Below are positions 1,851 through 27,714 of a stretch of DNA of 29,097 nt, in pieces. Numbering within the stretch: position 1 is the first letter of the stretch; every line of letters starts with the position of its first letter. The translations under genes and the position numbers were made by a program. Location of the stretch: positions 1 to 29,097 of IMG/VR virus record IMGVR_UViG_3300044476_000077; one strand, 5' to 3'. Source of the DNA: a virus. Taxonomy: Duplodnaviria > Caudoviricetes. The notes below the pieces were generated by a model. The model saw only the letters and a program-made list of their open reading frames with translations, was not told the origin of the DNA and did not search any database.

Positions 1851-3050
1851 ATGGCCCTTATTACCCCCAAACCAGCTTCCCACGCTCGGGCATGCCTCGG
1901 CCTCTACAGCGAGCGCGTAGTCATCGACTCCGTGGCGAGTGGCGGCACTAACCTGCTGTCCATCACCACGCACACCTCGCACGGGTGGTCCACCGGCATG
2001 ACCATCTATCTTCATTTCACTTCGGTCTATACCAGCGGATGGTACCTTGCCACCACGGGCACCACGGGCACCACCCTGGTTGTGGCAGGCAGCTATTCCA
2101 GCACGACCACCGGCTATGCCGTTAAGGGGCTGAACATACCCCTGTATGCCGGCGTGAAGTACGACCACGAAGCAACCGACATCGCGTATGACCGCCTGCG
2201 GGACAACCGCTTTGTGGGCGTTAATGCCAAGTCGTTGCGGTTTGCCACGCTGGGCCATTCCATGCCGCTGTTCCTGCCGCGCGACGGCGCCGAGGTGACC
2301 ACCCTGGTTGCGCTGTACGACAAGATCCTGCTGCCGGCGGGGTACAGCAAGAGCGGCAGCACGTTAATCACGTACACAATGGGGAGCGACTTCCTCGGGT
2401 ACGACCAGGTGTTTGCCGCGTATGAGGAGGTGCTGGACCGCGAAACGCTGGTGCTAGGCGCCACGGAGTTCGGCCTGGTGCTTGACACGGCCAATGGCTG
2501 CTGGGTGCAGCCGATCGAGACCAAGGGGCAGGACGGCGGCACGGCGGCGGTTGCCGCGGCTCTGGCGTATGCCGACATTGACGGCGACGACTCGGTCAGC
2601 GTCTTCCAGAATGCCAACTTCAAGATAGGGCCGACTACCGGCTTCCTTACGGACGTGCCGGCGATCAAGAGATTCACCTTCAAGAACGGCAACGAGATTG
2701 CCCTGCGGGATGATGGATCCAGCGATGGCGGCGTGGCGGGCTTCCTGGTTGGCAACACGCTGAAGGCGCAGACGGTCGAGATTGATCTGGAAATGCCGGC
2801 GGCGCATGCCAGCTTCCCGTTTGTCACGTACTTCACCCAGGGTACCGTGCTGAAGTACCAGCTCACGATGTTCGGCACTGTGGCGGGCGGGTACGGCATC
2901 CAGATTGTCGGCCAGTTTCAGATCCGGAACAAGGTTGATCGCGGCGAGCGGAACGGGATCCGGACCATCAAGGTGTCGGGCGTATCGTGCCAGGTGGCAA
3001 CGACTGACGTGCCGTTCTCGTTCTCGGTGGGCGCGGGTATCTCTGCTTAA
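1851..3050 (+). CDS. Major tail tube protein with an N-terminal inserted beta domain, 399 aa
   Basis: Beta-rich, acidic; tube-like motifs (IKRFTFKNGNEI, DRGERNGIRTIKVSG); AGAAGGA RBS before ATG 1851. Confidence 0.7.
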   Translation: MALITPKPASHARACLGLYSERVVIDSVASGGTNLLSITTHTSHGWSTGMTIYLHFTSVYTSGWYLATTGTTGTTLVVAGSYSSTTTGYAVKGLNIPLYAGVKYDHEATDIAYDRLRDNRFVGVNAKSLRFATLGHSMPLFLPRDGAEVTTLVALYDKILLPAGYSKSGSTLITYTMGSDFLGYDQVFAAYEEVLDRETLVLGATEFGLVLDTANGCWVQPIETKGQDGGTAAVAAALAYADIDGDDSVSVFQNANFKIGPTTGFLTDVPAIKRFTFKNGNEIALRDDGSSDGGVAGFLVGNTLKAQTVEIDLEMPAAHASFPFVTYFTQGTVLKYQLTMFGTVAGGYGIQIVGQFQIRNKVDRGERNGIRTIKVSGVSCQVATTDVPFSFSVGAGISA

Positions 3051-12339: not shown

Positions 12340-12663
12340 TTATTTGCCGGAGCCGTCGCCGGAGCCGGAGCCGTCGCCGGAGCCGTAGCCGTCGCCGGAG
12401 CCGTAGCCGGAGCCGGATCCGTAGCCGTAGCCGGATCCGTAGCCGGATCCGTAGCCGTTGCCGGAGCCGTCGCCGGAGCCGTAGCCGTCGCCGGAGCCGT
12501 AGCCGGAGCCGGATCCGTAGCCGGAGCCGTAGCCGTCGCCGGATCCGTAGCCGTAGCCGTAGCCGTAGCCGGAGCCGGAGCCGTAGCCGGAGCCGGATCC
12601 GTAGCCGTAGCCGTAGCCGTAGCCGGATCCGTAGCCGTAGCCGTAGCCGTTTATCGCTTCCAT
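12340..12663 (-). CDS. Gly-X (GY/GS/GD) dipeptide repeat protein, 107 aa
   Basis: Built from 6-nt units GGCTAC/GGCTCC/GGCGAC/GGATCC; start overlaps the DUF6948 gene end. Confidence 0.6.
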   Translation of the reverse strand: MEAINGYGYGYGSGYGYGYGYGSGSGYGSGSGYGYGYGYGSGDGYGSGYGSGSGYGSGDGYGSGDGSGNGYGSGYGSGYGYGSGSGYGSGDGYGSGDGSGSGDGSGK

Positions 12664-12936: not shown

Positions 12937-13032
12937 TCACTCTCCATTTGTGTTGTTATCGCGGAATATCCGCTTGAATAGCCACCACATCAACAACGAG
13001 GCAAGCGCGGCCATGACCGTCATCCGTTTCAC
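12937..13032 (-). CDS. Small single-TM peptide, 31 aa
   Basis: GTG start overlaps the TGA of the extended xis frame; hydrophobic core MAALASLLMWWLF. Confidence 0.45.
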   Translation of the reverse strand: MKRMTVMAALASLLMWWLFKRIFRDNNTNGE

Positions 13033-13220
13033 GCCGGCACCCCGTGCGCGACAACCCGCTCGACCACCACGTCGAGCTGATCCGATGGAATGCGCACGGC
13101 GCGGGATCACACCCGGCAAAAGTCTATGCGCTTGCCCATCCAGGCCCGCACCGTCTTTTCACTTATGCCGCATTGTGCGGCGAACTCGCGTACTGTAAGT
13201 AGTTGCTTGGTATTTCTCAT
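13029..13220 (-). pseudogene. xis: Excisionase-like HTH_17 protein interrupted by an in-frame TGA (13107-13109)
   Basis: MRNTKQLLTVREFAAQCGISEKTVRAWMGKRIDFCRV*SRAVRIPSDQLDVVVERVVAHGVPA*; the family pattern continues across the stop; absent from the ORF track. Confidence 0.75.
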
Positions 13221-13306: not shown

Positions 13307-13741
13307 TTATTGCTTGACAACCTGCATATTTCTGACCACGCACTCAAACGCTCCGCCGTGCAGGCCAACCAGGAAACAAAGATCTGAAAGCCTGCATGCC
13401 GCCGCCCAGGCATCCAGACCCGCATCCGTCATGCGGTGCGACACGGTGAATACCCGCGCCGTAAAGGTGACGGTTGACCCCATCCACTTGTTTGAGTACA
13501 TGCGCGGCTGCATAAACAGGTCCACAGTATCGCCGGCGTCCATCGCCGCGGTGATCTTCTTGTTGAGCACATCGGCCCAATGGCATGCCTCAATAATGGC
13601 GTCACCCAGCATGCGCCGATCATCGGCCTTTATTTGGTCGGTTGTTTTCACGGCCGCCGGCGTGGCGGTCATGCGGTTCGAGGCGGCGCGAAGTCGAGCC
13701 TTGCGGGCGCAGGAGCAGCTTATGTCTTTAAGATCAGTCAT
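13307..13741 (-). CDS. First gene of the early operon, hypothetical, 144 aa
   Basis: GGGGA RBS before ATG 13741 (MTDLKDISC); no recognisable family. Confidence 0.6.
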   Translation of the reverse strand: MTDLKDISCSCARKARLRAASNRMTATPAAVKTTDQIKADDRRMLGDAIIEACHWADVLNKKITAAMDAGDTVDLFMQPRMYSNKWMGSTVTFTARVFTVSHRMTDAGLDAWAAACRLSDLCFLVGLHGGAFECVVRNMQVVKQ

Positions 13742-13793
13742 TGTCGTCCCCAATGAATATTAATGGTTAAATCAGAACCAATCAAAAAAGTTA

Positions 13794-13823
13794 TTGACAC
13801 ACCATGGTGAACCGTGGTATAAT
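13794..13823 (+). promoter_or_regulatory. Consensus sigma70 promoter firing antisense into the early leader and towards the repressor
   Basis: TTGACA(13794)-18 nt-TATAAT(13818) with extended -10 TG; spacer holds tandem ACCATGGT / ACCGTGGT. Confidence 0.75.
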
Positions 13824-13863
13824 ATAGTGATGTGGGTGAGGTATAGCAATATGCTTTCCATTC

Positions 13864-14017
13864 CAGACAAAAAAAAGACCGCGGCGGGCTGTGGATACAT
13901 CGGACGACAATGCGCAGATACTGAATCTGCCAGCGCCGCCGCGGTGGTGTCTGATAATTGGTTGTGTTTGTCGGTTCGCATTGTCGCCTTTCATTTCGGC
14001 CAGTATCCAACGGCCGT
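13864..14017 (-). ncRNA. Structured early-leader RNA, putative antisense immunity RNA or attenuator
   Basis: Stem 13878-13891/13931-13945 followed by U8; alternative pairing 13905-13914/13977-13986 and 13892-13898/14003-14009; 13902-13912 complementary to the RBS+ATG at 13739-13749. Confidence 0.6.
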
Positions 14018-14023
14018 GCAACC

Positions 14024-14052
14024 AGTATAGCAAATTGCTTTCTTTTTGTCAA
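14024..14052 (-). promoter_or_regulatory. Leftward early (lytic) sigma70 promoter
   Basis: Minus strand TTGACA(14052-14047)-17 nt-TATACT(14029-14024) with extended TG. Confidence 0.8.
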
Positions 14053-14077
14053 GATGCGGATGATGTTTTTGCCCTCT

Positions 14078-14095
14078 TGTGGTATAATGCCAGCA
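14078..14095 (+). promoter_or_regulatory. Extended -10 promoter for a leaderless repressor mRNA
   Basis: TGTGG-TATAAT(14083-14088), 6 nt, then ATG 14095; no SD and a poor -35. Confidence 0.7.
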
Positions 14096-14457
14096 TGACT
14101 ACAAGAATCGGCCACGCAATCCATCAAGCACGTCTGCAAGCAGGTCTCACACAGCTGCAGCTTGCCACGGTCTTGAAGGTCACCAAGACCAACTTCACCC
14201 AGCTTGAGCGTGGCAACTATCAAGGCCGCTTGTATTTGCCGACTGATAGCATGATGCGAAAAATCATCGCCGCAACGTTTGCCGAGGAGAAGCGGGGCGT
14301 GATCCTGGCGCAATGGCAATGGATGGCAACGATTGACCGCGCCGAGAAGCTGTTTCCCGGCTTTTGCTCCCGCATGGAGTATTACGGCATCGTGATTGAC
14401 GTGCTCCAACGCATCAAGACGCACAAAGGCGGCGCCGGCGCTCCGTCCGCAGTTTGA
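14095..14457 (+). CDS. XRE-family HTH immunity repressor, 120 aa
   Basis: IGHAIHQARLQAGLTQLQLATVLKVTKTNFTQLERG; divergent from the early operon and upstream of the integrase; no S24 peptidase domain. Confidence 0.8.
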   Translation: MTTRIGHAIHQARLQAGLTQLQLATVLKVTKTNFTQLERGNYQGRLYLPTDSMMRKIIAATFAEEKRGVILAQWQWMATIDRAEKLFPGFCSRMEYYGIVIDVLQRIKTHKGGAGAPSAV

Positions 14458-14482
14458 CAACACCCGCTTAAACCGATATACT
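14454..14482 (+). promoter_or_regulatory. Sigma70 promoter for the membrane protein and integrase
   Basis: TTGACA(14454)-17 nt-TATACT(14477). Confidence 0.75.
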
Positions 14483-14522: not shown

Positions 14523-15056
14523 ATGGCGCTGCATAAGTGCCAAGATTGCGGCAAGGATATCAGCACGTACGCCACGGCATGCCCACACTGCGGCAAGCCG
14601 GCCCAACAAAAGCGACGCAAGACCGGCTGCCTCGGCCTCACCTGCTGTGTCGTATTCATTGCCCTGGTCATCATACTCAGCCTTAGCCAGGCGCATCATC
14701 AGGCGGTCACCGCGCCCAGCACAATGCCGGCATCAGGCACGTACACCCTCGCGGAGCTCACACCCGCGCCGACAAACTCACCCGCTGGTATCACCCATGA
14801 AGATCAAGCCAAGATTGATGCCGCTGTCATTGCCTCGATCAACGCCGGCGTGGCGACCATACGGAATGACGAGGTGTTGATCCGCCGCTCATATTGGGAC
14901 AGCATCGACTACCAGTCGAAATTAAACACGATCCGCGTGTATGCCTTGTATAAGAAGGGCCGCGGCGAATCACACAACGTGGTCATCAAGGACGCCATGA
15001 CCGGCAAGAAGCTCGGCGCCATGACCACCTTCGGCGGGGCAACGGTGACACCATGA
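14523..15056 (+). CDS. Zinc-ribbon single-pass membrane protein (superinfection-exclusion-like), 177 aa
   Basis: CQDC...CPHCG, basic stretch, TM helix, P/T linker, extracytoplasmic domain; between repressor and integrase. Confidence 0.7.
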   Translation: MALHKCQDCGKDISTYATACPHCGKPAQQKRRKTGCLGLTCCVVFIALVIILSLSQAHHQAVTAPSTMPASGTYTLAELTPAPTNSPAGITHEDQAKIDAAVIASINAGVATIRNDEVLIRRSYWDSIDYQSKLNTIRVYALYKKGRGESHNVVIKDAMTGKKLGAMTTFGGATVTP

Positions 15057-16165
15057 GCCTGCCCACGTCAATATTCCAGTATCGAGGTGGCTACTACGCC
15101 AAGTGGTACGACGCCGGCGCTCGGCGAATGATCTGGAAGAAGCTCGCGCCCACCAAGTCACTTGCCCAGGAGGCGCTCCGCGCACTGCAAACCAAGCTGG
15201 TGAGCGGACCGCTCCGCACGTACAGCCGCGTAACTCTGCGCCAGTACTATGAGCGCCACTACAAGCCCGACTACCTGAGCAACGGCACCGCCTGGCAGGC
15301 AAAGCAGCTTGAACTATGCGCCGCCTACATACTGCCGCGCTGGGGATCCAGCATCATGAGCGAGCTGGCGTTGTACGATGTGCAGTCATGGTACCGCGAA
15401 CTCTTGGCCATCAAGAGCCGGTGCTATGCCAACCATATCGTGAGCGTACTCATGACCATGCTGCGCCGGGCGCGTGGCAGGTTCATCGCCGCCTCGCCGC
15501 TGGCAGACTTCAAGAAGCTGCGCCGGGAGAAGAAGGTACCGGACACCCTCACGCACGACCAGGTCAACCGGCTGTACACCATGCTGGATGGCCGCGATCG
15601 CGCCCTGATGTGCGTGTGGATCATGACGGGGCTGCGGCCGGCGGAGATGCAGTGGCTGCAATGGGTCGACATAAATCTCGATAATGGCAAGCTTATTGTG
15701 CGTAGCAAGCGTCAAATGCCGCAGGGCAACGCAGCCATGAGGGCCGGCCACAGCATAAAGGACGCCGAAGATCGGTACATTGACCTCACCAGCGACGCAA
15801 TAGACCTCCTCCGCGAGCATCGTGGGCCAAGGATGCCGGCGGCAGACGAGTTTGTCTTCCCAAACAATCGCGGCCAGCTCATGATGAGCATGCCGAACCA
15901 CGTGTACAAGGTATTCAAGCGATCAGGAATCCGCAACGGGAGTGCGAACCTATTGAGGCACACATTTGCGAGCATGTTTTTGAGTGGCGGCGGCAATTTA
16001 GCCGAGCTGAAGCAGTACATGGGCCATTCAAGCATAGTGATCACGGAGCAGCACTACGCGGCTTTTCTTTCGGGCAAAGCGAGCACGATCCATCGTGTAG
16101 ACTTTGGCATGACGGCGAAGGCGGAGCAAAGGCACGTGCTGGGCAAGGTTGCACAAGTAACATAA
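15053..16165 (+). CDS. int: Tyrosine recombinase (integrase), 370 aa
   Basis: TGLRPAE, LLRHTFAS, MGHSSIVITEQHY; N-terminal arm-binding-like beta domain. Confidence 0.95.
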   Translation: MSLPTSIFQYRGGYYAKWYDAGARRMIWKKLAPTKSLAQEALRALQTKLVSGPLRTYSRVTLRQYYERHYKPDYLSNGTAWQAKQLELCAAYILPRWGSSIMSELALYDVQSWYRELLAIKSRCYANHIVSVLMTMLRRARGRFIAASPLADFKKLRREKKVPDTLTHDQVNRLYTMLDGRDRALMCVWIMTGLRPAEMQWLQWVDINLDNGKLIVRSKRQMPQGNAAMRAGHSIKDAEDRYIDLTSDAIDLLREHRGPRMPAADEFVFPNNRGQLMMSMPNHVYKVFKRSGIRNGSANLLRHTFASMFLSGGGNLAELKQYMGHSSIVITEQHYAAFLSGKASTIHRVDFGMTAKAEQRHVLGKVAQVT

Positions 16166-16192: not shown

Positions 16193-16220
16193 GGAGGTTC
16201 AAATCCTCCCCTCCCCACCA
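16193..16220 (+). other. attP core: tRNA 3' fragment (T-arm, acceptor strand, discriminator A, CCA)
   Basis: GGAGG-TTCAAAT-CCTCC-CCTCCCC-A-CCA, 27 nt after the int stop; no 5' half of a tRNA upstream. Confidence 0.85.
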
Positions 16221-27469: not shown

Positions 27470-27492
27470 ACTAATCACAATCGAGAACGACA

Positions 27493-27714
27493 ATGGCAAT
27501 TAAATGGATTAAACACCCCAATGGGGTCGAGGTTGCTGTAGCCGCAAAAGATGCCGAGGCGCACCGCGATCGAATCCTTGGCGAGCAGCTCAAGGCGAAA
27601 GTGAAAAACCCGACTGTGACGATCCTTGACAAGCCCACTCCGGGTGCCAAGAGCGACCAGGTGGCAAGCACGCCGCAAATCGAAAAGACCAACAGCAACA
27701 GAGCCGGCAAGTAA
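27493..27714 (+). CDS. Small hypothetical protein after the capsid gene, 73 aa
   Basis: Fills the gap, same strand, low-complexity tail. Confidence 0.6.
   Translation: MAIKWIKHPNGVEVAVAAKDAEAHRDRILGEQLKAKVKNPTVTILDKPTPGAKSDQVASTPQIEKTNSNRAGK

Follow-up and report, generated by a model that had tools for sequence, protein, structure and literature searches.

Does the early leader of this small phage encode an antisense switch of the kind known from P4 CI and P1 C4, and, if so, what would such a switch control? The window, that is the whole stretch of 29,097 nucleotides that was analysed, carries a leftward control region for which a first-pass annotation proposed an RNA immunity or attenuation device with three pairing sites. 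The window looks like the complete 29-kb genome of a small temperate phage, though the record is rated 45% complete. It has a terminal repeat of 127 nt, its ends are joined into a circle by a contig of one DNA sequencing run labelled as a sediment metagenome, and all the main gene modules are present, namely terminase, portal, capsid, minor head genes and a tyrosine integrase (15053-16165). Directly behind the integrase lies a 28-nt copy of the 3' end of a tRNA-Tyr (16193-16220, plus strand), likely the attP core; this 28-mer has exact matches in 7 genomes belonging to several phyla and thus indicates no single host. The phage is a singleton: nine of the ten proteins looked up were found, each alone in its cluster.

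All the elements that had been described for the leftward leader are found at their positions on the minus strand. The leader begins with a 5' hairpin (14016-13997, minus strand; -9.7 kcal/mol, with 3/200 shuffles folding equally well), whose loop holds the site a1 (14009-14003). Downstream of it lies b1 (13988-13977, minus strand), which comprises the ribosome site and start codon (ATG, 13981) of a leader ORF of 69 codons. Further along the same leader, an antisense segment (13914-13892) is complementary to three sites, a1, b1 and b2. Its a' part (13898-13892) directly adjoins the closing stem's 3' strand and would form with a1 the 7 bp that had been reported. Its b' part (13914-13902) is the partner of both b1 and b2. 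The ten Watson-Crick pairs noticed earlier for b1 (13986-13977 with 13914-13905) extend to 12 bp with one G-U (13988-13977 with 13914-13903), and the 11 bp of the downstream match join 13912-13902 to b2 (13749-13739, minus strand), where gene 1 of the early operon has its ribosome site and its ATG (13741).

The complementarities of the antisense segment exceed chance. Of 3000 dinucleotide shuffles of the 279-nt leader, three gave one 8-nt core with complements on both its upstream and its downstream side; when the segment itself was left unshuffled, a match of at least 10 bp upstream arose in 100/20000 shuffles and one of at least 11 bp downstream in 4/20000. The 10+11 layout occurs once in this genome and three times per 1,175,012 strand-bases of the fetched loci (0.15 per 58 kb), every time in G+C-rich words; these thresholds were chosen after the site was seen, and at 9+9 the background rises to 0.89 per 58 kb. 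Among 412 tiles of the phage's own genome, the 8-nt statistic was reached by eight, of which one is this site, five lie in a Gly-Tyr repeat gene and two elsewhere. Comparison of the segment with 30 gene starts placed the two flanking starts at the top (11 and 10 nt), followed by one with 9 nt, the other 27 reaching at most 6. A 73-aa gene located behind the capsid gene has a start (27493) complementary to the segment over 9 nt (27487-27495, plus strand), and this late gene is a possible third target. In terms of duplex energy, the upstream site is the best of 7264 non-self windows, with a margin of 0.1 kcal/mol (-27.2 versus -27.1), while b2 (-20) lies outside the best 40 of these windows. The two sites are not fully independent of each other, as both are start regions and several starts in the genome share the last bases before the ATG. 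Judged on its letters, the three-site leader is a real and ordered structure, a well-shaped single case.

The antisense segment belongs to a predicted C4-like three-stem RNA (13945-13878, minus strand). Its closing stem P1 (13945-13931 with 13891-13878; 14 bp, one bulge) is followed, as had been described, by a C and a U8 tract (13876-13869, minus strand), and it encloses P2 (13930-13925/13919-13914, 6 bp) and P3 (13913-13908/13902-13897, 6 bp including two G-U pairs, weak). The fold of 13948-13870 has an energy of -40.2 kcal/mol and a z-score of -6.21, equalled by 0/200 shuffles; the opposite strand reaches a z-score of -4.35. The first-pass annotation regarded the antisense sequence as unpaired within its loop, and here the prediction differs: the segment is partly folded as the weak P3 and is open only at 13907-13903 and 13896-13892. 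P3 itself is not above chance, 422 of 2000 segment shuffles folding equally well, and its opening would cost 2.4-6.4 kcal/mol. Of the open stretches, the P3 loop (13907-13903) is complementary to the ribosome-site half of b2 and b1, and the junction, made of the five bases before the 3' strand of P1, is the partner of a1 in the 5' hairpin loop. The U8 tract is the genome's only run of at least seven A or T and occurs only on the leftward strand. The stem and the U8 are both present, but the structured loop of 39 nt exceeds the 3-8 nt limit of the terminator scan, so that the site, which is not of the standard small-loop kind, was not listed there. From its predicted fold, the closing stem of the RNA likely doubles as an intrinsic terminator.

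Stepwise folding of the growing leader revealed a competition between this stem and the upstream sites. As long as the 3' end lies between 13905 and 13882, b1 and b' are predicted to pair in cis with a probability of 0.996 or more; the closing stem takes over at 13880-13878 (0.915 at 13880). When the upstream sites are blocked, as a ribosome or a trans-acting RNA would do, the closing stem forms at 13882, with a probability of 0.998 versus 0.002 unblocked. At equilibrium, the complete terminator fold is better by about 7 kcal/mol (-52.0 versus -44.9). Since the terminator fold wins at equilibrium and the advantage of the cis pairing ends within a few bases, read-through must be kinetic: closing the 14 bp would need melting of the 19-bp cis pairing, which holds the 5' strand of the stem in its loop, with the 3' end in the polymerase. 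Pairing with b2 in cis, on the other hand, is 15 kcal/mol worse than the free fold and has a probability of 0.0 in the folding, and b2 is therefore best read as a trans target.

The control region that surrounds this RNA has a lambda-like layout, with PL and its operator, the leader, the terminator, a convergent promoter directed toward the repressor, and gene 1. PL, the leftward early or lytic promoter (14024-14052, minus strand), is of the sigma-70 type, matches the consensus at 11/12 positions with a TG before the -10, and would start transcription at about 14017. An operator-like palindrome, O1 (14027-14041), occupies its spacer between -35 and -10, and a second one, O2 (13843-13857), is located just beyond U8; these are the only two places in the genome within three mismatches of the palindrome. 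They are presumably bound by the product of the adjoining HTH repressor-like gene (14095-14457, plus strand; 120 aa; HTH_31, E 2.4e-5, below the curated cut-off), for which two full-length relatives (P0004 and P0006) of about 40% identity were found. An extended -10 match (14079-14094, with the -10 at 14079-14088, plus strand) would place its start on the repressor ATG, giving a putative leaderless, PRM-like promoter. Upstream of the repressor ATG, its frame has no stop for another 68 codons, back across the entire control region to a GTG at 13891 (13891-14457, plus strand). At the other end of the gene, a strong rightward promoter (14454-14482, plus strand; 11/12) overlaps the repressor stop codon and precedes a zinc-ribbon gene and the integrase.

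One further element, which the first-pass annotation did not mention, changes the logic of the switch. A rightward promoter, P+ (13794-13823, plus strand), with a full 12/12 consensus and a TG, is placed between U8 and gene 1 and is convergent with PL. It would start at about 13830, about 40 nt beyond U8, so that O2 covers about +14 to +28 of its transcript, and this transcript would cross the entire RNA in antisense before reaching the repressor gene, which gives P+ a PRE-like position. The P+ spacer (13801-13818) contains two near-identical 8-nt palindromes, a possible site for a second regulator, and a 4-codon ORF starts at 13910 on the P+ strand.

The leader ORF (13772-13981, minus strand) runs for its 69 codons through the RNA and U8. 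It matched no family and was absent from the protein collection searched; its GC3 is 0.51 versus 0.68-0.77 in four neighbouring genes, and its product is probably not a functional protein. Gene 1 (13307-13741, minus strand; 144 aa) matched no known family either; a single-sequence model of its structure has a pLDDT of 41, and the best atlas score is 0.78. Gene 1 is followed by a broken xis-like gene, DUF6948 and further early genes. The xis-like HTH_17 gene (13029-13220, minus strand; E 3.7e-6 when read through with X) has an in-frame TGA at codon 38, and the assembled sequencing run shows the same letters there. Recoding of TGA was ruled out as the reason, since TGA ends 20 of 30 genes. A Gly-Tyr-Ser repeat protein (12340-12663, minus strand), of which the sequencing run holds many look-alikes, adjoins DUF6948.

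The reading that we favour, with a little more confidence than doubt, is that the predicted C4/CI-type RNA with its own terminator is a self-limiting antisense attenuator on the early operon, acting as a timer rather than as lasting immunity. On the first PL transcripts, b' and a' would pair in cis with b1 and a1 as they emerge, unfold P3 and delay the 14-bp stem, so that the polymerase would often pass U8; translation of the leader ORF across the stem would favour the same outcome. Transcripts that do stop at U8 would build up, either as a 148-nt leader or as a trimmed RNA of about 77 nt. Acting in trans, the accumulated RNA could then occupy a1 and b1 on new transcripts and block the leader ribosome site; with a1 and b1 occupied, the stem would close and termination would rise. 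On read-through messages, the same RNA could mask the gene 1 start, ribosome site and ATG included. Termination about 40 nt before the P+ start would also spare P+ from being run over and thereby favour repressor synthesis, and the repressor would then shut PL at O1. The scheme follows published logic. Passages of PMC4825925 describe the processed leader RNA of P4 CI as pairing with seqA and seqC to cause termination, translation of Eta prevents termination in P4 according to parts of PMC10111431, and coverage of ribosome sites by the b' loop of C4 appears in excerpts of PMC5320573 and PMC12197685. A weak point of the proposed mechanism is that the untrimmed 148-nt RNA, having the antisense segment and its targets on one molecule, would be expected to titrate itself; signals for trimming it to a free RNA were looked for at the site and not found.

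Within this self-limiting attenuator, the RNA would be a delay or dose device in the lysis-lysogeny decision more than a factor of lasting immunity. Its role in lasting immunity is doubtful, because the leader's only strong promoter has an operator-like palindrome and would probably be off in a lysogen, and because P1 possesses a second c4 promoter while none is seen here. Sections of PMC8198154 report that the c4 operon of P1 is also under a protein repressor and yet needs C4.

Several other explanations account for part of these observations. The leader could be a purely cis-acting attenuator, in which b' and a', by pairing with the ribosome site of the same leader, set translation of the leader ORF through the terminator and no diffusible RNA is involved. 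The cis pairing is indeed the one predicted to form first, the stem and U8 are spanned by an open ORF that has a ribosome site, and no processing signal that would release a free RNA was found. We nevertheless hold such an attenuator to be unlikely: the longest match, 11 bp to the start of gene 1 (4/20000 shuffles), would be left unexplained, as its pairing in cis is disfavoured by 15 kcal/mol, and the cis pairing would oppose the terminator yet mask the ribosome site of the leader, two effects that pull in opposite directions in the absence of any external input. Somewhat less likely again is a fixed terminator combined with a small RNA, where transcripts from PL always end at U8, the RNA only represses gene 1 in trans, and a1 and b1 tune its availability. 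Gene 1 would then be transcribed from a weak leftward promoter match (13849-13821, minus strand) that overlaps O2 and would compete with P+. The equilibrium fold, which is the terminator, and the length of the b2 match speak for this arrangement, as does the existence of the 9/12 promoter match beyond U8 and over O2; 9/12 matches, however, arise by chance at a mean of 1.3 per shuffle of the region, and a near-perfect, operator-bearing promoter whose sole product is an RNA against the lytic side would be silent precisely in lysogens.

It is improbable, slightly more so than the fixed terminator, that only the terminator is real and that the three-way match reflects chance, a decayed C4-type relic or protein-bound DNA repeats. 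The case comes from a single genome, its thresholds were set once the site was known, and rare coincidences are expected when many windows are scanned (the 10+11 layout by itself has a background of 0.15 per 58 kb); the a2 site of C4 is missing, and the broken xis-like gene downstream suggests that the region may not be fully functional. However, the matches coincide with a hairpin loop, with the start codons of two ORFs and with the junction of a fold with a z-score near -6, in the nested order of C4; furthermore, the repeats are not palindromic and the inverted copy is the one within the stem, which fits RNA pairing, and separate palindromic operators are present. The lowest probability of these goes to a switch of opposite sign resembling IsrK, in which the short isoform would bind the read-through message through a1 and b1, tie up b' and thus free the start of gene 1. 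The Gifsy-1 IsrK, whose short isoform activates the long one according to passages of PMC4825925, provides a precedent, and the terminated RNA exposes a1 and b1 in its best fold; but such a switch needs b' to mask b2 in cis by default, and this masking is predicted to be absent (probability 0.0, 15 kcal/mol worse).

Returning to the self-limiting attenuator, it can be carried one step further. Speculatively, and with considerably less confidence than the attenuator itself, the C4-type RNA fused with its own terminator would replace the CII and N proteins in a lambda-like switch, counting both time and dose. The RNA would rise with time and with the number of infecting genomes, stop early transcription short of a constitutive P+, relieve the interference and so turn on the repressor; it might also damp the late gene with the 9-nt match at 27493. 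If so, antisense attenuation would be coupled to transcriptional interference.

To find relatives of this leader, viral, metagenome, genome-collection, protein and profile searches, blastn against phages and plasmids and searches with models in host-phylum genomes were employed, and none returned a homologous leader. In viral contigs, the exact antisense segment was found at 0 loci and the b1+b' pattern at 54, none with the third site; the stem with U-tract gave 7 loci and the P2 scaffold 5, all unrelated. A C4-type stem variant matched two viral loci (L062 and L063), and L062, the one read, lacks matching sites. The L062 element (2496-2622, minus strand) is the start of a C4-type stem closed by a U-tract, has a second hairpin upstream and faces the end of an integrase-like gene. 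In metagenomes, the stem pattern gave 93 loci, and none of the 81 distinct matches examined has the layout. Blastn of the leader against phages and plasmids returned short chance pieces only. Protein searches with gene 1, the repressor and the integrase led to no locus, and among 5.8 billion proteins gene 1 and the repressor matched only themselves. Genomes of the phyla to which the attachment site points, four sets of 151, were scanned with a single-sequence RNA model, which detected no related locus; two of the sets gave 6 matches at E ≤ 0.01, all unrelated, and the other two none at E ≤ 0.001. The repressor profile, run over 5, 301, 208, 51 and 401 genomes, gave two matches, one a generic chromosomal HTH gene and the other confined to the HTH. 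RF01695 had no match in 51 genomes, where the controls gave none either. Among sequencing runs, the sequence was listed in one DNA run, possibly its source, and in no RNA run.

Searches of the literature, whose scope excluded most subscription papers, among them the primary P4 and P1 work, listed no account of a PR/PRE-type switch in which a C4-type RNA is fused with its own terminator. If the favoured reading is true, the C4/CI design exists well outside the proteobacterial family described by Rfam (c4 is listed for Proteobacteria and phages in portions of PMC2864571), and it exists in a compact form in which the antisense RNA and the terminator are one stem. A phage that bears a repressor would moreover have built this design into its main lysis-lysogeny switch, and not into an antirepressor or satellite side circuit. 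The whole unit covers about 330 bp and has sigma-70-type promoters, so that it is testable in E. coli reporters, and it could serve as a self-addressed feedback attenuator.

How far does this RNA resemble the known ones? The likeness to P4 CI and P1 C4 that was first proposed holds for the anatomy, that is the three-stem topology and the nested order of sites when compared with the P1, P4 and N15 records, and fails for membership in RF01695. A search of the window against Rfam, including C4 and isrK, gave no match at E ≤ 1; a scan of the 401 nt 13700-14100 gave no C4 match at E ≤ 10 and produced two chance matches, both under their cut-offs. The comparison with the c4-2 motif was made by Rfam scan. 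C4 of P1/P7, with a1b1 and a2b2, is covered by RF01695 and RF03163 (clan CL00128). In a single-family search, RF01695 had no match at the site, with a membership bar of 45 bits, and the P1, P4 and N15 controls scored 68.8-78.8 bits. Rfam likewise recognises isrK in P4 and N15 and c4-a1b1 in P1 (51-62 bits), whereas neither isrK/seqA (RF01394) nor c4-a1b1 (RF03163) matched here, where there is only one 5' hairpin instead of a two-hairpin leader. With a model built from the C4 RNAs of P1, P4 and N15, the site obtained 8.5 bits (E 4), the third of 13 chance-level matches; in the reverse direction, a model of this RNA gave 54 matches up to E 10, and the P1, P4 and N15 RNAs were absent among them. 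An a2 site just after the RNA was searched for, and the best match is 5/8 and overlaps b2, while the controls have a2 3-11 nt after the RNA. The RNase P processing ends of C4, namely a GGW at the 5' end of stem P1 (a rule given in excerpts of PMC5320573) and the C4 3' tail, were not found; this stem begins here with ACC and leads into C-U8. By score, a2 and processing ends, the leader RNA is thus not a member of RF01695.

Among the other known systems, IsrK of the Salmonella prophage Gifsy-1 (RF01394) shares with the device proposed here a short terminated and a long read-through isoform, an upstream ORF and pairing in trans, according to parts of PMC4825925. IsrK contains the target half only and activates translation, and the terminated RNA here would contain both halves.

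In lambda, the gene order is PRM/cI, PR, a short ORF, a terminator, PRE and the first regulated gene, and the PRM message is leaderless. The order of parts, PR-tR1-PRE-cII with PRM/cI, is shared by this control region, including the back-to-back early and leaderless repressor promoters and the short ORF. Unlike lambda PRE, P+ matches the consensus perfectly and would be expected to work without a CII-type activator; unlike the lambda short ORF, the leader ORF has no Cro-like domain; and the place of the lambda-type terminator would be taken by the antisense RNA. The two promoter starts are about 187 nt apart here and 320 bp apart in lambda. Sections of PMC5001618 describe the arrangement of PR, tR1 and PRE and an interference of about 5-fold by PR on the convergent PRE.

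The closest resemblance in anatomy is to C4 and CI. The three-stem P1/P2/P3 junction, with a' single-stranded before the 3' strand of P1, is shared in the fold predicted here. As in P1, P4 and N15, a1 lies in the loop of a leader hairpin and is followed by b1, b' and then a' stand beside the closing strand, and b2 covers the ribosome site of the next gene. The spacing of the nested sites is similar, with an a1-b1 gap of 14 versus 7-9 in P1, P4 and N15 and a b'-a' gap of 3 versus 6-7. The a1-b1 gap also counts among the differences, as do other dimensions: b2 is 128 nt away from the RNA versus 33-42 in these controls (33 in P1), the RNA measures 68 nt versus 77-80 (77 for P1 C4), and the closing stem has 14 bp versus 17 in P1/P7 C4. 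C4 of P1/P7 targets icd/ant, and the targets here would be gene 1 and the leader ORF; a convergent promoter between the RNA and b2 is a further difference from P1/P7 C4. In P1, a repressor operator overlaps one c4 promoter and a second c4 promoter exists, whereas no second, operator-free promoter is seen here. The P4 promoter is constitutive, according to parts of PMC10111431, while PL has an operator-like site and an adjoining protein repressor gene. In P4 and N15, the upstream seqA/isrK module ends in a U-tract terminator and precedes CI, whereas the terminator here would be the antisense RNA's own stem. On the other hand, the P1 and P4 leaders show the same early cis pairing in the same stepwise folding, and the Eta ORF of P4 is translated through the RNA region (passages of PMC10111431), like the leader ORF would be here. 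With P4 CI this leader also shares its location at the head of an early operon that includes replication genes, both upstream and downstream targets, and, as proposed here, termination as the output. Collectively, these comparisons suggest that the leader RNA likely works like C4/CI.
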